This document shows positions 11,186 through 38,330 of a stretch of DNA of 43,039 bases, piece by piece. A model generated the notes under the pieces. It ran no database searches. It saw only the letters and a list, made by a program, of their open reading frames with translations, and was not told where the DNA came from. This stretch comes from Escherichia phage SM_S24. The DNA is taken from sequence record PP920554.1. One strand, given 5' to 3'. A program made the translations under genes and the position numbers. Numbering within the stretch: the stretch's first letter is position 1; each line of letters starts with the position of its first letter.

Positions 11186-11447
11186 GAAGCGGGACAAGCG
11201 GGACGCCCCGTTTTGTCCCGCCCCTGTAAAACTGCATATCTAATCACTTTCATTGCATAAACTCAAAGCGGGACAGGCGGGACGTCCCGTTTTGTCCCAC
11301 CCCTGAAATGTGCATACCTATTCGAATTTCGTGCATAAAACAAACGGGACAGAAAGCGGGACAAATGCGGGGCGGGACAAAGCGGGACAGCACCCCATCC
11401 CCACCAGTGCTGCCGCGGTTTTCAGCCGATCGGGACAGGCGGGACAA
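11186..11447 (+). repeat. array A of GCGGGACA(R) octamers with interspersed TGCATA(A) boxes
   Basis: at least 10 same-strand octamer copies (about 11189, 11198, 11268, 11277, 11343, 11355, 11372, 11382, 11431, 11439) plus inverted GTCCCGC copies; non-coding gap between GT stop and tape measure start. Confidence 0.8.
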
Positions 11448-28582: not shown

Positions 28583-28841
28583 CCAATAAATCACAGTCGG
28601 CGATGTTGTCTATAACGCGAACGTCAGCGCCGCGGCGGGCCATCCGCTCATGTTCACGTACCTGGTGCGGCTTCGGTTTTCCTCCTGGGCGCTTCACTTC
28701 AACGAACACTATTTTGCCGTTGATGATGATAATCAGGTCGGGCGCACCTGCGCGCCCCTCCCAGGCCATTTTGCGGCAGAATCCGCCTACCTCTTTCACC
28801 CGTCGCATCAGGTGACTTTGAATCTTGCCTTCTGGTGTCAT
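28563..28841 (-). CDS. VRR-NUC domain nuclease
   Basis: 92 aa from ATG 28841 (TAATG overlap with the polymerase stop); GAPDLIIIINGKIVFVEVKRPGGKPKPHQ matches the VRR-NUC PD-(D/E)XK core. Confidence 0.7.
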   Translation of the reverse strand: MTPEGKIQSHLMRRVKEVGGFCRKMAWEGRAGAPDLIIIINGKIVFVEVKRPGGKPKPHQVREHERMARRGADVRVIDNIADCDLLVAELVA

Positions 28842-31132
28842 TACTTCCTGTACCTGTACATGATGTCGCCTTCGGCGGCAAGCGGGAAGCCTTTCGCCCA
28901 AACAGGCAGGTCGCACATCAGCGCGCATAGCTCCTCGGTCGTGTAGTCGTCAGTATCCGGAACCTCGGTGATCAGTTCATCGTGTACGGACAGTACGATC
29001 TCATACCCCGCGGCTTCAACGCCTGGCATGGACCATGCGAGAATATCGCGGCATAGCGCCTGTACGATGTTTTCCGTCAGTTTGCCGCCGTAGGTATACT
29101 GGAAGCCCCACTGGCGCGTCGTCTGATTCTCGCCCTGGTATTTGATGCGGGTGCTGGTGCGCTTCTTGCCGGTGTCTTCGTCGATCTCGGTCGTGACAGA
29201 CAGCGCGATGCCCGGGTAGCTCATGATGCGCCCTGACGGCAACTCAATTTTCAACCACCACCCTGCGGCGTTCGGGTCGTCGCGCTCCTCGTCGAAGGTT
29301 GGGTCATGCTTCGCCTTCGTGCGAACAATCTTAAGCGCTTTCCTGCCATCCGGGCGAACGTTCGCACCCGCCCAGTATGCTTTGCCCGGATTGCGGATCG
29401 CGCAGAGCACCGCGTCTTCCAGTTCAGCCCAAAATGCTACCGTCTTAGGGTGAGCCTCGCGCCACATACGTTTGATCGCGTCACACGTCAACCACACGTT
29501 TTTCGGCAGTATGTAAGTTGGGCGCTCGTCTTTCTTGCCAGGCTTCGGCGGGCGCTTGGCTTCGTTAATGCGGGCATACTCATAACCACGTTTCGCCGCG
29601 GCCCAAATATGATCGGGGAATGTGCCCTTCATGACGTCCGCCATCGCATACAGGTCGAGGCCCAGGTTTTTAGCAAACTGCAGGAACGCTGCAACACCGC
29701 CACCATAGCCCAACCCCAATTCGCACGCCTTACCAATCTGGCGCAAGTCTTTGCGGTTGGCTTTGATGTATTCCGGGTCGAGGCCAAACATCTTACCGGC
29801 AGTTTCACAATAGATATCGCGACCCGCCCTGAACACCATTAGCGCGGTTTTCTCCCCCGCGATCCAGGCGAGGCCACGCCCTTCCACGTTGGAGTAGTCA
29901 GCTACGACAAACTTCTTACCCTTCGCCGGAATAATGCACCCGCGAACAGTCGATGCCGTTAGCTTCGATATGTCATACGCCCAGTGCGCTGTCCCGCGTA
30001 ACAGGGAGTTGATGCCGTTGGTAAGCATGTGCGACCGCACCCAAAACGCGACGTCGCTCTCGCCTTCACGGCGCTTAATCTTCCCTTCGTGGTCGTCGCT
30101 ATACTCGCCGCGTGCCAGGTTTTGCGGCTGGAAGCCTTTGCCCGCCCAGCGTAGCGTGCGTTTCGCCCCACCATACTGGAGACACCCACGACGGCGACCA
30201 TCTGCAGATAAGCCATTAACGAGCGGATTGTACTTAGTCGATGCCGTTGATGATGCACCGAGGCGCATCTCGATAAGCACTTTGCCCTCGTCGGGGAAGT
30301 CCGGGTCTTCCAGCAGGTCGTTAAGCGTGGATTTCTGCGCGTTGTGTATTGTGAACGCAGGCGCGAGGTCGCGCAGCGCTGGCAGGAAGTCATTGCCGGT
30401 CAGCTTACCGCCAAAGCGCTCCCATGCTTCTTCCTTCAATTCTTCCTTATGCGCCTGTACCGCTTTGATCGCGGCGCGCGCCAGGTCAACGTCCACATAG
30501 AAGCCGCGGTCATTGATCAACTGGTCAATAAGCAGGATTTCGTCTTCCTTCGGCGTGTTACCCCAGTCCGGTATGCGCCAGTAGACTTCCCTCATCGCTA
30601 TAATATCCAGCGCGGCATAGCGCAGGAATTTAGCCCACTCCTCGTGGTGCGTCTCGCGCGTGTAGCGGCGGATTTTGTATGTCTTAGGGGTTGGCTTACA
30701 GAATCGTTTGATCAGCGCCTTGCCCGCCTTATCCTTCGCGTGCTCTGCGTCGACGCCCAACACCTGGCACTGCATATCGAGGCTACCCGGCAGCGCGTGT
30801 CGAAAGGCCATAATCATGGTGTCTTCGATCTGGCCTACCGGCAGGTCAATGCCCCACTTCTCGCGAATAACCAGGCGGTCAAACAGGAGGCCGTTAGCCA
30901 TCACGATTTTTGCTTTCTTGCGGGATACCTGGCGGAGAGCCTTGCGCAGTTCACGCGGCATTGTAGGGGACTCGGTGCAATCCCATGTCTGCACGCGCCC
31001 CTCGTCGATGGCGTAGGTGCAAATCATAATCTCGGTTGTCGGGTGCTCCGCGTAGGCGTATGCGCCAACTTTCTTCAGGTCCACCCCGCTAAATGTCTCG
31101 GTATCGAGAAAAAGGCGTTCGAAGTCTTTCAT
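28841..31132 (-). CDS. DNA polymerase I-like (family A) with 3'-5' exonuclease domain
   Basis: 763 aa; N-terminal exonuclease motif LFLDTETFSG, polymerase motif A-like VVADYSNVEGRGLAWIAGE; RBS GAGGA. Confidence 0.9.
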   Translation of the reverse strand: MKDFERLFLDTETFSGVDLKKVGAYAYAEHPTTEIMICTYAIDEGRVQTWDCTESPTMPRELRKALRQVSRKKAKIVMANGLLFDRLVIREKWGIDLPVGQIEDTMIMAFRHALPGSLDMQCQVLGVDAEHAKDKAGKALIKRFCKPTPKTYKIRRYTRETHHEEWAKFLRYAALDIIAMREVYWRIPDWGNTPKEDEILLIDQLINDRGFYVDVDLARAAIKAVQAHKEELKEEAWERFGGKLTGNDFLPALRDLAPAFTIHNAQKSTLNDLLEDPDFPDEGKVLIEMRLGASSTASTKYNPLVNGLSADGRRRGCLQYGGAKRTLRWAGKGFQPQNLARGEYSDDHEGKIKRREGESDVAFWVRSHMLTNGINSLLRGTAHWAYDISKLTASTVRGCIIPAKGKKFVVADYSNVEGRGLAWIAGEKTALMVFRAGRDIYCETAGKMFGLDPEYIKANRKDLRQIGKACELGLGYGGGVAAFLQFAKNLGLDLYAMADVMKGTFPDHIWAAAKRGYEYARINEAKRPPKPGKKDERPTYILPKNVWLTCDAIKRMWREAHPKTVAFWAELEDAVLCAIRNPGKAYWAGANVRPDGRKALKIVRTKAKHDPTFDEERDDPNAAGWWLKIELPSGRIMSYPGIALSVTTEIDEDTGKKRTSTRIKYQGENQTTRQWGFQYTYGGKLTENIVQALCRDILAWSMPGVEAAGYEIVLSVHDELITEVPDTDDYTTEELCALMCDLPVWAKGFPLAAEGDIMYRYRK

Positions 31133-31299
31133 TGCTTAATCCTCACTACGGCGTCAGCGCTGCCGATCATGGAGAAGATGCCGTCTGACAGGGTGATCTC
31201 TTCGCCGTTGTTGCGAATCTCGGCAACTGTGAAATACTCGCCCAGCAATTTGGACCATACCTGCATTCCGACTTTTACTTCGCTGGCTTTAATACGCAT
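31129..31299 (-). CDS. hypothetical small protein
   Basis: 56 aa (MRIKASEVKVGMQVWSKLLGEYFTVAEIRNNGEEITLSDGIFSMIGSADAVVRIKQ), RBS AGGA, ATGA coupling to the polymerase start; below the 60-aa track cutoff. Confidence 0.35.
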   Translation of the reverse strand: MRIKASEVKVGMQVWSKLLGEYFTVAEIRNNGEEITLSDGIFSMIGSADAVVRIKQ

Positions 31300-31315
31300 T
31301 TTTCATTGTCCTATT

Positions 31316-31339
31316 AAAAAGCCCGCATTAAGCGGGCTT
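31316..31339 (-). terminator. intrinsic terminator after the SSB gene (minus strand)
   Basis: AAGCCCGC-TTAAT-GCGGGCTT followed by TTTTTA on the minus strand. Confidence 0.55.
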
Positions 31340-31357
31340 GAATAGTGGGCTTTGCCC

Positions 31358-32134
31358 TTAACGGCGGCGACGTTTACGTGGCGCTTCGTCTTCGTCCTCA
31401 TCTTCGTCATCGCGTGGCTTACGACGTTTGCGAGGTTTCTCATCTTCGTCTTCGTCGTCGTCATCGCGGCGCTTGGATTTTTTGGACTTGCGCGGCTTGT
31501 CATCTTCATCATCGTCATCACGACGTTTTGACTTCTTAGCCTTGCGCGGTGCTTCGTCTTCGTCGTCGTTGTCCAGGTCTTCATCGGAGCAAGAAGACCC
31601 GCCACCGCCGAAGGCTTCACCGTCATCACGGAATCGCAGACCCAGCAAGCCAGCACCGAGTCCTTTACCGTTGGTATTGTTCCACGCCCAAATATCAAGG
31701 GACACGTTGCAATAACAACCAGAGTAGATCTCCTGGCCTTCAATCTCGTCGCCGTCGATGGTCAGACCTTGTTCAGTCTGCTTCTCGCCGAGTGACGTTT
31801 GAATGATCGGCTGTTTGAACGATTTGGCGTTGATGTACAACATGCCTTCGAATTCTTCGGTTACTTCGTCGCGCTCGTCACCGTCGCGAACTGCGCATTC
31901 CTTAGAATCCTGGGCGTAGTGGCGGTCCATCCACTTATCAGCATTCTTCTCGGATTTCAGCTTGTCGGTGAGCACTGCGCGCGCTGCCGCTTCCACTTTG
32001 TCCACCTGCGGATCTTCTTTATCAAGGAGAATCACTGCACGGTATGCCGGTTTTTGTCCATCCTGTTTAGGGGTATCACGTTCCCAAATTTTAAGGAAAC
32101 ATACGCGCACATTTTTCAGGTTGACTTTAGCCAT
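31358..32134 (-). CDS. T7 gp2.5-like ssDNA-binding protein (DUF2815-like) with alternating acidic/basic repeat tail
   Basis: 258 aa from ATG 32134 (RBS GAGGAA); N-terminus MAKVNLKNVRV typical of gp2.5/DUF2815-type SSBs; C-terminal about 80 aa are four blocks of [D/E]6-9 then [K/R]5-8. Confidence 0.55.
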   Translation of the reverse strand: MAKVNLKNVRVCFLKIWERDTPKQDGQKPAYRAVILLDKEDPQVDKVEAAARAVLTDKLKSEKNADKWMDRHYAQDSKECAVRDGDERDEVTEEFEGMLYINAKSFKQPIIQTSLGEKQTEQGLTIDGDEIEGQEIYSGCYCNVSLDIWAWNNTNGKGLGAGLLGLRFRDDGEAFGGGGSSCSDEDLDNDDEDEAPRKAKKSKRRDDDDEDDKPRKSKKSKRRDDDDEDEDEKPRKRRKPRDDEDEDEDEAPRKRRRR

Positions 32135-32199
32135 TTTCCAATTCCTCATTTTCACATGTATCGGGGTTATTATGAGCCACCCCGTTCGGCTTGGTTGCT

Positions 32200-32228
32200 A
32201 ATCTACTTGGTTGCGCCTAAGCGGTCAA
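32200..32228 (-). promoter_or_regulatory. sigma70-like promoter for the SSB operon
   Basis: minus strand TTGACC-17 nt-TAGATT; GCAACCAAG in the spacer and again just downstream of the -10. Confidence 0.45.
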
Positions 32229-32467
32229 GCATTTTCATTAAAAAGATTTCTGGTAACGTAGTCGGTAGCGTTCTCGATCCAGCTTAATGGCGGGCGGTCG
32301 ATATTCTTCGCCACCCAATCGGCGGCAGCTTCGCTATAACCGTCATCCAGCCAGCGGGTCGGATGGCGAATCATCCACGCCACCATTAACACGCCTTGCA
32401 CGCAATGCAGGATAAAGCCCAGCGCTCCGAGCAAAAACATCAATAAGATTGCGAATACTTTATTCAT
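32225..32467 (-). CDS. small membrane protein (hypothetical)
   Basis: 80 aa with one hydrophobic helix (FAILLMFLLGALGFIL). Confidence 0.35.
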   Translation of the reverse strand: MNKVFAILLMFLLGALGFILHCVQGVLMVAWMIRHPTRWLDDGYSEAAADWVAKNIDRPPLSWIENATDYVTRNLFNENA

Positions 32468-33890
32468 TGCTTAAGTCCTCGTCAGTAGCTTCCGACCACG
32501 CAGGGCGCGGGTCGTCGATTGGTGCTAACACCGGTTTGGCAGGTGCGCGCGTTATTTTATCACACAACTTTGCCCACACTTTCGGCTTCTCGTCCTTCAG
32601 TACCTTCTCGGCATCAGTAGGGCTGAGTAATGTTTCTTTGTACATAACATCGCGCTTGATCCGGGCCTTCGTGAAGATTTCAATAACTTCGCTCTCGTCC
32701 GCCCACTTACGGATCCCTTCCTTACCGGCAACCATCTTGAGGCCCAGCGATTCACCATCACCCGCCATTACAGCCTTAAATACCGCGGACTCGATCGCTT
32801 TGATGTGCTGGCGCATTGCGTCCAGACCTTCATAAGCCTTGCGCAGTTCCGCAGCGCTCATAGCGCCTGGGGCCGCTTCTTTCTTACCGCGCTTCGCACG
32901 TCGTGCCGCCTTCCTGGCTTCGCGGGCCATATTGCGGTCGTGATTGGCGCATTCTTCCTCGGTCGCCACGCTCACGTCGTCGCCCAGGTCTTCGTCGGTT
33001 GCCGTTGGAGGTGTCATCGTGTCGATTGCGGCCTTAGCGCGGGCACTACACTGATCCGCAAATCGACACCACTGGCACGCATCAACGCTGGGCCGGAAGT
33101 CTGCGCGGGTGAGTCCCTTCTTGCCTCGGGAATACGCCTCCAGTGCGGCAATAGCGCGCTTGGATGCAAACTTCGCGAATATCTCCAGGGCTTCTACCGA
33201 AATATCCCACTCCGACGCCCCGCCGCAATACGGCTGGAAGATAACCAGTCGCACGGTTGTAATGTCGTACATAGTTTGCAGCTTGCGCAGCAGTCCGAGC
33301 GCGTACAACATAAGCTGTTTGTTCTCTTTCGCCTCGACCTTATGCCGCCCGGTCTTCAGGTCGCCAACAATCAGCATGTACGTTCCATCGGTCTTTTTCA
33401 TTACCATGACCATATCGGCAGTACCGAACGTTTTAATCCTGTTGCCGTCGATCTCGTAGCCTGAGTGAAGGACGCGGGTCAGATCGGCGCGCATCTCAAG
33501 CTGGACAAACTCCGCCACTTCGAGGAGCGGTCGCCAGTGGTCGATGTACGCGTCGCACTGTTTCACCATGTCGTCGTTGACCAGTACGCCGCCTTTCGGT
33601 GCTTTAGGGTGTGCCTTTACTGGCCCCTTGCCTTCGTTCTCGACGTAGCACCCTTTATACGTCTTCGCGGTTATCAGCTTTTCCCCAGCAATGATGCGGT
33701 TTAGCACGACCTCTGATACAGTGTGCATACTTGTACCGTTAATCGCAGCTTGCCCGGATTCGTTCGGGATATCTTTTTCGACCACCAGGGCGGCAGGGCA
33801 ACCCATCCATTTTTTAGCACCGGACGGTCCGAGTAATGAGTGTTCCGTATTGCTACCGGATTGCGTTTTACGTTTTGGTTTAATCGCCAT
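32460..33890 (-). CDS. Cas4/RecB-like PD-(D/E)XK exonuclease (DUF2800-like)
   Basis: 476 aa; N-terminal HSLLGPSGAKKWMGCP motif and Cys cluster CQWCRFADQC (one N-terminal plus three C-terminal Cys) typical of Cas4-like nucleases; co-located with gp2.5-like SSB and PolA. Confidence 0.7.
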   Translation of the reverse strand: MAIKPKRKTQSGSNTEHSLLGPSGAKKWMGCPAALVVEKDIPNESGQAAINGTSMHTVSEVVLNRIIAGEKLITAKTYKGCYVENEGKGPVKAHPKAPKGGVLVNDDMVKQCDAYIDHWRPLLEVAEFVQLEMRADLTRVLHSGYEIDGNRIKTFGTADMVMVMKKTDGTYMLIVGDLKTGRHKVEAKENKQLMLYALGLLRKLQTMYDITTVRLVIFQPYCGGASEWDISVEALEIFAKFASKRAIAALEAYSRGKKGLTRADFRPSVDACQWCRFADQCSARAKAAIDTMTPPTATDEDLGDDVSVATEEECANHDRNMAREARKAARRAKRGKKEAAPGAMSAAELRKAYEGLDAMRQHIKAIESAVFKAVMAGDGESLGLKMVAGKEGIRKWADESEVIEIFTKARIKRDVMYKETLLSPTDAEKVLKDEKPKVWAKLCDKITRAPAKPVLAPIDDPRPAWSEATDEDLSNE

Positions 33891-34378: not shown

Positions 34379-34894
34379 CTAATCTTCCAGTTCGAAATAG
34401 GTTTCGACGATTTCTTTTAGCTCTTTGTGGAAGTCTTCGACGTCGTCATCTTCCAGCTTGGCGATTGATTTGATCTCGAACGATTCCAGCAGGTCGTCGA
34501 ATTCGTCGATCGCATCGTCGTCATCGCCACCGGCGATAATCGCGGCATACTGTTTGATTTCGTCGCGCATCTCTGCCAGCGGGTCGGCATCTTTCTTACC
34601 TTTGCCTTTCGCCGGTGCTTTCTTAGACTTAGCCGGTTTTTCGTCTTCGGCATCGTCGTCGTCATCTTCTACGACTTCTTTTTTAGCCTTACCTTTCGCC
34701 GGTGCTTTTTTAGATTTAGCCGGTTTTTCGTCTTCAGCTTCATCGTCGTCATCTTCGACAACTTCTTTTTTCGCCTTAGATGGCTTTTTATCTTCCTGCT
34801 TACCAACGGCAGCGCCAACGGTTTCATAATGTTTAGCGATTGTTTCCAGTGCTACTACGCCGCGAGTAATCAGGTTTACGATTTGTTCGAACAT
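34379..34894 (-). CDS. acidic mixed-charge repeat protein (first leftward early gene)
   Basis: 171 aa from ATG 34894 (RBS GGAG); two tandem KPAKSKKAPAKGKAKKEVVEDDDDDAEDE repeats and a strongly acidic C-terminus; own sigma70-like promoter upstream and intrinsic terminator downstream. Confidence 0.5.
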   Translation of the reverse strand: MFEQIVNLITRGVVALETIAKHYETVGAAVGKQEDKKPSKAKKEVVEDDDDEAEDEKPAKSKKAPAKGKAKKEVVEDDDDDAEDEKPAKSKKAPAKGKGKKDADPLAEMRDEIKQYAAIIAGGDDDDAIDEFDDLLESFEIKSIAKLEDDDVEDFHKELKEIVETYFELED

Positions 34895-35636: not shown

Positions 35637-37901
35637 ATGAGCTTAATTAAATTCGCTGTAACAAGACCCGCTAAAAAAGGCGAAAAAGCCAGGGCGGAAA
35701 ACTTCCAGATGACTACCGAAGAGTTTTTCGAATTTATCAATGATGCGAAAGAAATCTCCTCGGTGCATATCAACAAAACGGAAGATAAAGCCGAGTATGC
35801 ACGCCGCAAGCGTAAGGCCGACGGCATCGTGGCGTATACCAGTGACGGATTGCGTCGCAAGACCAGTGCGGTGGACCGCTCGATCCTGTTCTTCGATATT
35901 GACCGTACTGACACCCGCACCCTACGCCGCTGCCGTAAGGCGTTCATCGACGCGGGACTGGAGCACGTCTTCCACACCACAACCGGCGACCGTCACCCAC
36001 TGAAAGGTGGAACGCGTTGCGCTCGCTTCCTGGTGTTGACCGACAAGCCTGTACCGGCTGAAGACCTGGGCCGTGTCCAGTATGCGCTATTACACCAACT
36101 GGGCCTGTCAGATGTGGACTTCGACGACTGCACGAAAGACACAAACCGCCTTATGTACCTACCACACCAGCAGTCTGTTATTAAGTGCCACTATGGCAAG
36201 CGCGCCCGCGTCCGTCGTCTGCTTCGCCTGGCTGACAAGCTGGGAGTTGAGAAAGAGGAAGTCCGCCGCGAACTGACCCAGGGCGACGACGCAGTGGCAG
36301 ACGGCATTCTGGACTGGTGCTTCCAGGCAGGATTCGAGGAGTTATCTTCCGGTCGGGGTTATGAAGTGCCGTGCCCGAACGAACATCTGCACAGCGGCGA
36401 AGGGTCGACGGCTATCATGGTCAAGGATGGCGAGATCCGTTTCAAGTGTATGCACACAGGCAACGAGTGTTGCTCGGAACTGAATAGGCACCAGCACCTG
36501 GCGCTACGTCTTATCGGGATCCCGGACCACCTGAACGTCGAGCCACACAATATGTCCCGTAAGCAAATCGCCGCCATCCTTCCGGGGCTGGACGACGAAG
36601 AAGTCGAATCCTTATATGAACATATTGTTGATGCAGTTGGCGACGGCGAAGAATACGGCGTGTGCACCGATGCAGATCTGGATAACGAGCCGGTTGCGCT
36701 GTTCAGTAAGCACGACCCGATTATCGAGGGGTTGATTAACTTTAAATCGACCTGGTACATGGCGGGTGAGTCGAATATCGGTAAGTCTTTCTACGTGCTG
36801 GGCCAGATGGGTGCGGTTGCCGCGGGGATTCCGTTCGGCGGTGCGAAGGTCGTCCAGTCTCATTGCTTCTATTTCGACGCGGAAGGTGGTGAAGCCTCCA
36901 ACCAGCGTAAGGAAGCACTGCAGATCAAATATGAGCACGACCTGGATAAGCTGCACATTATAGACCTGCAGTCACGCGGCTGGGATATCACCAGCAAATC
37001 AGGCTTGCGCGAAGTTATCAGCTTTATCAACCGCACCGCTAACGGCGAACCGGTTGGCCTGGTGGCGTTCGACTCTCTCAACCAGACTGTTGCGCTGCGG
37101 TCCGCCGATGCTAAACCGTTCGACGAGAACAACGCCAGCGATATGGGCGAAGTGGTAAAAGCGCTGAAAGCCATCGCGGAAAATACCGGCGGCAGTGCTG
37201 GCGTCATCCACCACCCGGCGAAGGGTGCAAACGGCAGCAGATCCCCCCGCGGGTCCGGCGCGCTGCATGGTGCTGTTGATTCTGCGTTCTTCCTTGAGCA
37301 ACCGGACGACAACCAGCCAGGCCAATTGAACCTGTATCACGAAAAGGCACGTAACGGCATCAAGCAAGCGCCGCGTGGCTTCGTCCTGCTCAAGTGCAAG
37401 GTGAAGGTAGATCTCCGCAAGTCAGAAGCGTTCGCGTCGCACCAGTCCACCAGCACCGGTCCGGACTTCGGCGACGTGGTTGCCGGATGGGACGTCAAGC
37501 CGATTGCCTCCACGCCACGCGACGAGACTCTCTACCTCGTACCGGTTGCCCTGGCACCGTTCGCTATTGAACAGGCGAAGGCCGCGGGCAAAGCAGCAGT
37601 TAAAGAAGAGAACACCGCCGGACCGCGCAACGAAAAAGAGAAAGTGCTCTATGCGGCACTGGAAAAACTGATGGAAGATAACCCGGACCATACTGGATTC
37701 AGTAAATCGGCAATTGTCCGCCAGGCTGGGCTGGCAAAAGGTGGCACTTCGACGAAGGCAATCGACGATATGGTGGAGCGAGGAGTGATAGGTTTTTACA
37801 CCGATCCGCACACCGGGGCCATCTATGGGTCGTCTAATTTGGTCATCAAATCGGATATACCCATCACGCTTTCAGCGACCGATGACGATTTAAAAGATTA
37901 A
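35637..37901 (+). CDS. primase-helicase (AEP-type primase, zinc-binding region, P-loop NTPase)
   Basis: 754 aa; N-terminal DxD-type motif ILFFDIDRTD, Cys/His cluster CPNEHLHSGE...CMHTGNEC, Walker A GESNIGKS and Walker B-like LVAFDSL; iteron array begins at its stop codon. Confidence 0.7.
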   Translation: MSLIKFAVTRPAKKGEKARAENFQMTTEEFFEFINDAKEISSVHINKTEDKAEYARRKRKADGIVAYTSDGLRRKTSAVDRSILFFDIDRTDTRTLRRCRKAFIDAGLEHVFHTTTGDRHPLKGGTRCARFLVLTDKPVPAEDLGRVQYALLHQLGLSDVDFDDCTKDTNRLMYLPHQQSVIKCHYGKRARVRRLLRLADKLGVEKEEVRRELTQGDDAVADGILDWCFQAGFEELSSGRGYEVPCPNEHLHSGEGSTAIMVKDGEIRFKCMHTGNECCSELNRHQHLALRLIGIPDHLNVEPHNMSRKQIAAILPGLDDEEVESLYEHIVDAVGDGEEYGVCTDADLDNEPVALFSKHDPIIEGLINFKSTWYMAGESNIGKSFYVLGQMGAVAAGIPFGGAKVVQSHCFYFDAEGGEASNQRKEALQIKYEHDLDKLHIIDLQSRGWDITSKSGLREVISFINRTANGEPVGLVAFDSLNQTVALRSADAKPFDENNASDMGEVVKALKAIAENTGGSAGVIHHPAKGANGSRSPRGSGALHGAVDSAFFLEQPDDNQPGQLNLYHEKARNGIKQAPRGFVLLKCKVKVDLRKSEAFASHQSTSTGPDFGDVVAGWDVKPIASTPRDETLYLVPVALAPFAIEQAKAAGKAAVKEENTAGPRNEKEKVLYAALEKLMEDNPDHTGFSKSAIVRQAGLAKGGTSTKAIDDMVERGVIGFYTDPHTGAIYGSSNLVIKSDIPITLSATDDDLKD

Positions 37902-38167
37902 ATTTTGCGCGCATTGGTCGCCGTTATGGGAATCCCCATATCGGTAAAAGATTAAATTTTGCGCGCATTGGTCGCCGTTATGGGAATCCCCATATCGGTA
38001 AAAGATTAAATTTTGCGCGCATTGGTTGCCATTTTGCGTGCTTTTAGCCGGTCGTTAAAAGATTAAATTTTGCGCGCATTGGTCGCCGTTATGGGAATCC
38101 CCATATCGGTAAAAGATTAAATTTTGCGCGCATTGGTTGCCATTTTGCGTGCTTTTAGCCGGTCGTA
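37892..38167. repeat. iteron array, candidate origin of replication
   Basis: five tandem 54-57 bp units (A-A-B-A-B) sharing core AAAAGATTAAATTTTGCGCGCATTGGT(C/T)GCC with the 8-bp palindrome TGCGCGCA; begins at the primase-helicase stop codon. Confidence 0.6.
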
Positions 38168-38224: not shown

Positions 38225-38330
38225 AAGCGGGACAAAAAGCGGGACAGACCAGGGGCGGGACAAAGCGGGACAGCACCCTGTCCCGCCCCGGATGACGCGG
38301 CCTGGCGAGGAGCGGGACAGCGGGACAGCA
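38225..38330 (+). repeat. array B of GCGGGACA(R) octamers
   Basis: copies at about 38227, 38239, 38255, 38265, 38312, 38321 plus inverted TGTCCCGC at 38279; preceded by a TTATGCA/TGCATAA inverted pair and a TATAAT box. Confidence 0.8.

Follow-up and report, generated by a model that had tools for sequence, protein, structure and literature searches.

The SSB, or single-stranded DNA-binding protein, encoded by Escherichia phage SM_S24 ends in a tail in which the usual short acidic extension has been expanded by tandem duplication into a block polyampholyte that is predicted to be disordered. We analysed this gene within a 43,039-nucleotide stretch of the phage genome (sequence record PP920554.1), which we refer to throughout as the window. 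An initial annotation had claimed that the protein is an SSB of the phage T7 gp2.5 type, that its tail departs from the canonical short acidic form in carrying four alternating acidic and basic blocks, and that these blocks are encoded by tandem repeats of about 54 bp on the minus strand. Each of these claims holds, the last residues reading exactly as first described, and the analysis goes beyond them in three respects: the mixed-charge tail occurs across the family and is not peculiar to the source phage, its C-terminal tip is basic, and a short acidic peptide, SDEDL, lies upstream of the repeats. The DNA around the SSB gene (901 bp) matches 154 records of the phage collection at 85-99% DNA identity (the closest being JLBYU37, at 98.7%), nearly all of them phages of Escherichia or Shigella that belong to Dhillonvirus, the genus of HK578-like siphophages, and we assign the source phage to this group as a Dhillonvirus (HK578-like) phage of E. 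coli.

In the mechanical list of open reading frames (ORFs) the SSB gene runs from 31358 to 32155 on the minus strand, with a GTG start and 265 amino acids (aa). However, because the ATG at 32134 is preceded by GAGGAA and gives the same MAKVNL start as is annotated in relatives, it is likely to be the true start, yielding a protein of 258 aa. This protein matches the profile of PF10991 (Enc34_ssDNA-bd, formerly DUF2815) across residues 3-193 with a score of 109 bits (cutoff 26; E = 2.8e-31) and that of PHROG 112, 'Gp2.5-like ssDNA binding and annealing protein' (E = 3.3e-55), and its sequence matches the PDB entries 4klk, 4jg2 and 5odj, the last of which is Enc34 ORF6. In an AlphaFold2 model the predicted local distance difference test (pLDDT) score is 94-98 over residues 1-170, and a Foldseek search with the model retrieved 4klk (9e-13), 5odl, the Enc34 SSB with single-stranded DNA (ssDNA; 1e-12), 4jg2 (3e-11) and T7 gp2.5 (1je5; 1.4e-6). 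The core thus has the OB-fold variant of the solved members (5odj, 4klk and 4jg2) and of T7 gp2.5, and the gene lies in the expected replication-module setting, with a family-A polymerase, a DUF2800 nuclease and a primase-helicase. A Pfam search with the SSB returned no match to PF00436, the bacterial SSB family, and bacterial SSB structures match the model only at E > 0.2; a bacterial SSB would combine a tetrameric PF00436 OB domain with a DDDIPF-type tip, whereas this protein ends in RRRR. Profiles and model together identify it as an Enc34/T7-gp2.5-type SSB. Within the PF10991 family, preferential binding of ssDNA has been shown biochemically only for Enc34 ORF6 (PMC5686142).

Beyond the core and a Gly/Ser hinge, whose GGxG motif is kept across the family, residues 183-258 form a 76-aa tail of four tandem modules of about 17-23 aa (Table 1). 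Each consists of an acidic block with 7-12 D/E, an A/K-Pro junction and a basic block with 6-8 K/R, and the last ends in the Arg-rich sequence PRKRRRR. The corresponding DNA units measure 69, 54, 54 and 51 bp, and Tandem Repeats Finder (TRF) reports a period of 54 with 2.2 copies and 74% matches at 31449-31569. As the four units are only 60-73% identical in pairwise comparison, they are degenerate rather than perfect repeats, and the duplications are old or diverged. The tail contains 34 D/E and 28 K/R, so that 82% of its residues are charged (a fraction of 0.82), for a net charge of -6. In order to assess the charge pattern we used 10,000 composition-preserving shuffles of the 76-aa tail as the null. 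The charge-segregation parameter delta is 0.42 in the tail compared with 0.08 +/- 0.035 in the shuffles (z = 9.9; 0 of 10,000 reach it), and kappa is approximately 0.55 compared with 0.10. Sequence charge decoration did not separate the tail from these shuffles (z = -1.3) because the charge blocks alternate at short range, and kappa is the suitable measure here. In both its charged fraction and its segregation of charge beyond random, the tail is therefore a block polyampholyte. AlphaFold2 gives it pLDDT values of 47-66 and no secondary structure, from which it is predicted to be disordered. With canonical tails, which are acidic and carry an acidic-hydrophobic tip, it shares the lack of structure (by pLDDT) and the net negative charge, but it differs from them in its 28 K/R in four blocks and its PRKRRRR end.

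Comparison of repeat copy number among related phages had been put forward as a check, and the outcome is divided: module number varies from one to four in plaque-forming phages, but the tail is never absent, its end blocks are invariant and it is under purifying selection. Copy-number variation was drawn from GenBank phage records (a scan of IMG/VR gave 8 loci). We surveyed span lengths in 60 evenly spaced records of the 154 Dhillonvirus records and then confirmed module numbers by sequence; four modules account for most of the sampled records (~78%) and three for ~15%, with only a few at two or a single module. A single module is present in welsh (SSB of 202 aa), two in EP23 and P-GXEC-L2P5 (224 aa), three in HK578, Envy, GeorgBuechner and SECphi4 (236-244 aa), and four in the source phage, slur05-like phages, SO-1, SECphi18, rolling and Kente (256-265 aa). 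The reading frame is intact in each of these variants and the breakpoints fall within repeats; every one keeps SDEDL, the first acidic block and the terminal APRKRRRR, the modules lost being internal. A particular module number is not required, since phages with one to four modules are cultured and form plaques, several of them isolated on the same K-12 host. Many synonymous differences exist within and between the tail repeats, and the pooled ratio of nonsynonymous to synonymous differences (pN/pS; Nei-Gojobori, 12 relatives) is 0.11 for the tail compared with 0.05 for the core, values to be read with the caveats that alignment of low-complexity sequence is uncertain and that the pairs are not independent. 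This ratio and the in-frame variants indicate that the tail is translated and constrained, and thus under purifying selection, while its internal module number is not fixed.

With regard to the integrity of the gene, annotations such as 'hypothetical protein (x2)' raised the possibility of split or frameshifted SSB genes in 101114BS4, Opt212 and UAE_MI-01; all three genes proved intact (261-265 aa). In two database entries, P0005 (phage vB_EcoS-22664B1) and P0008, the SSB tail is read in another frame (…MTKMKHRARLRS…AGFLIGQ), and that frame is also open across the repeats in the window (ORF 31303-31743, minus strand). The two frameshifted tails reflect either errors made in sequencing DNA of low complexity or frameshift variants that occur naturally but rarely.

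To place the tail within the wider family we searched the whole library with the OB core alone as query, which gave 2066 representatives, and examined the best 147. About 137 of these 147 carry a short tail that contains a (D/E)(D/E)F(D/E)D(L/I) peptide and ends in an acidic-hydrophobic tip, and only about 10 carry acid/base modules (13 counting three that were missed by the pattern). As roughly 90% of the family representatives keep the short canonical acidic tail, the mixed-charge tail is a derived minority state, though a very uniform one where present. In a second set, 123 tails retrieved by searching with the whole protein, proteins carry 0-11 modules of 15-20 aa, Pro is common at the acid-to-base junction, a P-x-R-rich block lies within the last 22 aa in 98 tails, and the net charge is always on the negative side whatever the module number (mean -10.6). 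Units are more alike within a protein (similarity of 0.71) than between proteins (0.52), indicating that the modules were amplified repeatedly and separately in different lineages. Module length, the x-Pro junction and the balance of acid over base are kept from 25% to 98% core identity, and in distant lineages the equivalent protein pattern is encoded by unrelated DNA. One module is found in SETP3 (Jerseyvirus; DDLEDDEDETPRRERRRNR) and in K1H (Kagunavirus), two in Shemara (Cornellvirus) and three in Serratia phage Tsm2 (Guernseyvirinae), while in Xfas53 and APSE-2, from other groups, the tail is of the canonical acidic kind. In many distant relatives the last basic block is followed by an additional, acidic-hydrophobic tip (RRRRSRDDDVA, DDEIPF, DDDDLPF), and the SSB genes of these tip-bearing relatives sit in a DUF2800 - DUF2815 - PolA module. 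The C-terminal tip of E. coli SSB is DDDIPF. Some distant relatives (P0082, P0084, P0116 and P0204) have the ends DDDDLPF, DDEIPF or DDDDIPY, which are very similar to this tip and hint that phage SSBs with such ends could bind host proteins that interact with SSB.

The peptide with which the tail begins is conserved in position, taking the form (S/T)D(D/E)DL or (D/E)(D/E)F(D/E)DL across the family, and similar peptides occur in two further proteins of the replication module. Among six-frame ORFs of at least 60 aa the window holds only five D[DE]DL matches, and four of them fall in the SSB, the DUF2800 nuclease (twice) and the primase-helicase. Side by side, the candidate docking peptides read SSCSDEDLDNDDEDE in the SSB, SEATDEDLSNE at the nuclease C-terminus and SATDDDLKD at the primase-helicase C-terminus. 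The same correspondence is seen in relatives: Shemara has ATDSDLDD in the SSB, ATDSDLED-stop in the nuclease and EEDDLEN-stop in the helicase; SETP3 has VDDLEDD, TEDDLE-stop and TEGDLE-stop, respectively; and SSB and nuclease carry DFEDLSN and DFQDLSD in Xfas53, DDFDDDL and DDFADDL in locus L014, and GSAKQDF and GSAQSDF in locus L027. Over 11 lineages the SSB and nuclease peptides co-vary, with a same-phage score of 268 compared with 178 +/- 16 after permutation (0 of 100,000 permutations; p ~1e-5). Because the SSB peptide co-varies with the nuclease C-terminus and resembles helicase C-termini, we suggest that SSB, DUF2800 nuclease and primase-helicase share a common docking peptide, so that the partner-docking element of this SSB probably lies upstream of the mixed-charge repeats. 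An analogous arrangement exists in T7, where the SSB (gp2.5) and the helicase (gp4) share acidic tails that contact the polymerase.

Table 1. Features of the SSB gene and its surroundings in the window
Feature	Position	Strand	Basis or remark
Family-A DNA polymerase (PolA)	28841-31132		Leftward replication module; Pfam
56-aa ORF	31129-31299	-	Between SSB and polymerase genes
Intrinsic terminator hairpin and T-run (likely)	31316-31339	-	Directly after SSB stop codon; RNA folding
SSB gene, 258 aa and stop; Enc34/DUF2815, T7 gp2.5-type	31358-32134	-	PF10991, PHROG 112
SSB stop codon	31358-31360	-	
Module 4 and Arg-rich tip, DDEDEDEDEAPRKRRRR = DDEDEDEDE-AP-RKRRRR	31361-31411	-	APRKRRRR invariant in examined Dhillonvirus sequences
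Module 3, DDDDEDEDEKPRKRRKPR = DDDDEDEDE-KP-RKRRKPR	31412-31465	-	Lost by in-frame deletion from EP23 and welsh; in SECphi4, fused with module 4
Module 2, DDDDEDDKPRKSKKSKRR = DDDDEDD-KP-RKSKKSKRR	31466-31519	-	Deleted in frame in HK578, EP23 and welsh
Module 1, SDEDLDNDDEDEAPRKAKKSKRR = SDEDLDNDDEDE-AP-RKAKKSKRR	31520-31588	-	Acidic block kept in all relatives examined
SDEDL (residues 183-187), the proximal acidic-Leu peptide; candidate for a shared docking peptide	31574-31588	-	Family conservation
Gly/Ser hinge GGGGSSC, residues 176-182	31589-31609	-	pLDDT < 50 at residues 178-182
OB-fold core, residues 1-175	31610-32134	-	pLDDT, Foldseek
Sigma-70-like SSB promoter, TTGACC-17-TAGATT (putative)	32200-32228	-	Consensus scan
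80-aa ORF			Leftward module, between SSB and DUF2800 nuclease genes
DUF2800 PD-(D/E)XK nuclease	32460-33890		Leftward module; Pfam
Nuclease C-terminus, …EATDEDLSNE-stop	32460-32492	-	
Internal copy of acidic-Leu peptide in nuclease	32985-32999	-	
Small ORFs			Leftward module, between DUF2800 nuclease and 171-aa protein genes
171-aa acidic protein with mixed-charge repeat linker; phrog_3127 (function unknown)	34379-34894	-	TRF, PHROG
AAA_25 primase-helicase	35637-37901		Strand opposite to leftward module; Pfam
Primase-helicase C-terminus, …SATDDDLKD-stop	37875-37901	+	

Comparison with known systems shows both where this SSB belongs and where it departs from precedent. Like T7 gp2.5 (1je5), it has the same type of OB core, a disordered, net-acidic C-terminal tail and a gene near those for a family-A polymerase and a primase-helicase, although sequence identity is only ~10-13%. 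The T7 tail is ~26 aa long and purely acidic, with an essential terminal Phe, whereas here the tail comprises 76 aa, contains 28 K/R in four basic blocks and is Arg-rich at its C-terminus, and the acidic-hydrophobic peptide is internal rather than terminal. Enc34 ORF6, from an Enterobacter/Hafnia phage (5odj, 5odk, 5odl), belongs to the same family (PF10991/DUF2815), is the best structural match and has an equal replication-module setting; however, identity is ~22%, and its tail is canonical, with D/E at 16 of the last 29 residues and a hydrophobic end, and lacks both basic blocks and repeats. E. coli SSB likewise combines an OB core, a long disordered low-complexity region and a short acidic-hydrophobic peptide for partner docking, but its OB family is unrelated (tetrameric PF00436), its linker is rich in Gly, Pro and Gln with few charges, and its docking peptide stands at the very C-terminus, while here the peptide comes before the low-complexity region and the protein ends in basic residues. 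The gene 32 protein of phage T4 has a basic N-terminal B-domain with a LAST motif, which mediates cooperative self-interaction, and an acidic C-terminal A-domain, which binds partners; we take the block RKSKKSKRR to resemble the (K/R)3(S/T)2 LAST-type motif. The T4 protein differs in having another fold and in carrying its basic and acidic elements once each at opposite ends, as opposed to their tandem alternation in a single tail. High charge, alternating blocks, disorder and basic blocks enriched in Arg are also features of eukaryotic block polyampholytes such as Ddx4 and the Arg-rich mixed-charge domains of nuclear speckles, from which the segment described here differs in its much shorter length (76 aa), its origin in a bacterial virus and the lack of any evolutionary relation.

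By analogy with these proteins, we tentatively favour the view, to which we give a little less than an even chance, that the tail extends the gp2.5-type tail in a multivalent and electrostatically self-complementary way and so tunes SSB-SSB, SSB-partner and SSB-DNA contacts. As in gp2.5-type tails, the acidic blocks would shield the OB fold's basic ssDNA groove or compete for it, and the SDEDL peptide would dock on a replisome partner. The interleaved basic blocks would render the tail self-complementary and multivalent, such that tails could associate with acidic blocks on neighbouring SSBs, with the nuclease and primase-helicase at their acidic C-termini and perhaps with DNA. The outcome would be a tuning of SSB-SSB cooperativity and of how strongly replication proteins are concentrated locally on ssDNA, with module number setting the strength of the effect, adjustable by repeat recombination and not essential. 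There are precedents: the tail of T7 gp2.5 competes with ssDNA, lends stability to dimers and makes contact with polymerase and helicase (PMC10359462, PMC5686142); the Enc34 ORF6 tail inserts into the beta-sheet groove of a neighbour in the crystal, and its removal permits binding of double-stranded DNA (dsDNA) (PMC5686142); and E. coli SSB's disordered linker tunes cooperativity and condensation (PMC7584906, PMC12143593).

Several points weigh against this view. While the anatomy, selection and variation of the tail are established, the mechanism is drawn from charge physics and from other SSBs. Our set of 123 tails, having been retrieved with the whole protein, is biased toward tails that share words with the query, and in the core-only survey mixed-charge tails are confined to the small minority described above (~10 of 147). 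Multivalency cannot be essential, given that phage welsh forms plaques with only one module. Finally, the OB core has a net charge of -8 and the tail one of -6, which works against simple self-coacervation.

The variation in module number would also be expected if the tail were a weakly constrained spacer, in which only net acidity, SDEDL and the Arg-rich tip matter and the internal modules are products of slippage or unequal recombination in purine-rich repetitive codons, tolerated as flexible linker with no function of their own. Consistent with this, one to four copies are found among cultured isolates with breakpoints within repeats, the modules lost are the internal ones, purines strongly predominate in the tail's coding strand (AT skew of approximately -0.55 on the plus strand), and rare frameshifted tails occur in databases (P0005, P0008). 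We nevertheless consider such a spacer unlikely, as the tail has a pN/pS of 0.11 despite substantial synonymous divergence between repeats, ~78% of the sampled Dhillonvirus records keep four modules, and the modules, amplified independently in many lineages, conserve their length, x-Pro junction and acid-over-base balance across the full range of core identity.

The initial annotation had raised the possibility of condensate formation. In such a scaffold the tail would drive liquid-liquid phase separation of the SSB, with or without ssDNA, into droplets that would form replication compartments and concentrate polymerase, helicase-primase and nuclease. Disordered regions with charge blocks, including that of Ddx4 and Arg-rich mixed-charge domains, promote condensation. 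The charged fraction of 0.82, the kappa of ~0.55, the predicted disorder, the four modules here and up to 11 elsewhere, and the presence of a second mixed-charge protein in the same module all fit with this, as does the condensation of E. coli SSB through its disordered linker (PMC7584906, PMC12143593). However, relatives with one or two modules are viable and the SSBs of Jerseyvirus and Kagunavirus have one, a valency insufficient for the tail to drive phase separation; the net charge of the whole protein is negative (-14); and cytoplasmic ionic strength screens interactions of this kind. Phase separation driven by the tail is in our estimate quite improbable.

We hold in similarly low regard the proposal that the Arg/Lys blocks, especially PRKRRRR, act as arms that bind DNA or RNA (a junction of single and double strands, RNA primers, or the partner strand in annealing), masked by the acidic blocks until the SSB is on ssDNA and then boosting strand annealing or loading. 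No part of the tail is more conserved than its Arg-rich tip, and RefSeq and PHROG name the family an ssDNA annealing protein. The Jerseyvirus tip TPRRERRRNR resembles the arginine-rich RNA-binding motifs of phage N proteins, a likeness that we treat as a lead only. That the tail charge controls nucleic-acid specificity is shown by Enc34 ORF6, which gains dsDNA binding without its acidic tail (PMC5686142). On the other hand, the tail is net negative, and in many family members the last basic block is followed by an acidic-hydrophobic tip (as in RRRRSRDDDVA), showing that it need not be terminal. Lastly, a role for the 54-bp repeats in cis (as iterons, an origin or a regulatory site) with only incidental coding can be rejected with near certainty in spite of the detectable tandem repeats in the DNA, because the units are only 60-73% identical with mostly synonymous differences, the same pattern is encoded by unrelated DNA elsewhere, and the repeats lie within a gene that has a promoter and a terminator of its own on either side.

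These flanking signals are a putative promoter and a likely terminator. Phages SECphi4 and SECphi18 carry orthologues, described as 'predicted SSB (Gp2.5 family)', whose expression triggers Retron-Eco8, as does that of T7 SSB; the SECphi18 record is classed as Dhillonvirus, and SECphi4 is 92.8% identical in DNA to the replication module of the window. The published SECphi18 escape mutation 41725 A>G, located 'intergenic upstream of SSB', aligns exactly to the last T of the -10 hexamer of the sigma-70-like site upstream of the SSB gene, and because it falls on this hexamer it supports a function of the site as the SSB promoter. At the 3' end, a hairpin of -24.6 kcal/mol (z = -5.3; 0 of 200 shuffles as stable) directly follows the stop codon. 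A consensus terminator scan did not list it, but RNA folding confirms the hairpin, and a terminator is annotated at this site in phages CS16 and PTXU06. It is likely to be an intrinsic terminator that separates the SSB gene from the 56-aa ORF and the polymerase gene. The product of this ORF is one residue off the 'SECphi4 56aa protein of unknown function', which appears in the escape-mutant table of the published defence-escape study and was cloned there for expression.

Phage SSBs of this kind are sensed triggers of Retron-Eco8 and of other defence systems, which makes the architecture of the SSB relevant to defence research. A role of the tail in such sensing found no support: the published SSB escape mutations of SECphi4 and SECphi18 (T21P, T56P, F95L, F106V and N152H) all lie in the OB core, the remaining one lies in the promoter, and deletion of the C-terminal tail of T7 SSB leaves activation of Retron-Eco8 unaffected.

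The initial annotation had also pointed to a similar mixed-charge design in the 171-aa protein of the same leftward module, and this was borne out. Its gene contains an 87-bp repeat (2.2 copies, 88% matches, 34590-34778 by TRF) that encodes KKEVVEDDDDEAEDEKPAKSKKAPAKGK, and the resulting linker of 71 aa holds 22 acidic and 22 basic residues (net 0) in a protein with a net charge of -22. Repeat number varies among Dhillonviruses here as well, HK578 and TheodorHerzl being 84 bp shorter, and the homologue in Shemara carries EDDLDDEEPEEKPKRKPR, a module of the same kind as in the SSB. A common origin of the SSB tail and this linker is not supported, as their DNA shares only short GA-rich matches (32 bp at 87%) that are explained by shared codon composition. 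The C-terminal part of the 171-aa protein contains the peptide DEFDDLL.

The replication module as a whole is also found in SETP3, Xfas53, Shemara and metagenomic relatives. In the window, a tandem array at 37891-38166 starts in the last codons of the primase-helicase gene and runs on downstream; TRF describes it as 4.6 copies of a 54-bp period or 2.5 copies of a 111-bp period (84-91% matches), and it could represent iterons or an origin-like or regulatory array. Repeated AAGCGGGAC / GCGGGAC(A)AAG motifs lie at 11187-11386, including a 79-bp tandem repeat of 2.2 copies (11187-11362), and an 8-9-mer of these motifs recurs at 38311-38329.

A literature search for a mixed-charge, Arg-tipped SSB tail of variable copy number found no description in the papers covered; thus, while the SSB family and the roles of SSB tails are already known, this form of tail is apparently undescribed. 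Interleaved basic blocks and a basic terminus characterise a large and well-sampled group of phages, comprising the 154 Dhillonvirus records, and such tails are also present in representatives of Jerseyvirus, Kagunavirus and Cornellvirus, groups with several hundred further records. Natural isolates with one to four modules are present in public collections (among them the BASEL phages, SECphi4/18, welsh, EP23 and HK578), and because they already exist, no synthetic design is needed to test what part charge-patterned disordered tails play in SSB cooperativity and in organising the replisome. The co-varying peptide offers a starting point for asking how a little-studied type of replisome recruits its parts. 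It is conceivable, though we think it improbable, that Dhillonvirus, Jerseyvirus, Kagunavirus, Cornellvirus and many uncultured relatives, together a widespread set of enterobacterial siphophages, have re-engineered the acidic SSB tail into a copy-number-tunable, mixed-charge, Arg-tipped tail which, with the co-evolving peptide of SSB, nuclease and helicase, assembles the replisome by multivalent electrostatics. If so, tail and peptide together would constitute a phage-encoded analogue of condensate-type organisation, one that could be tested with the natural one- to four-module variants.

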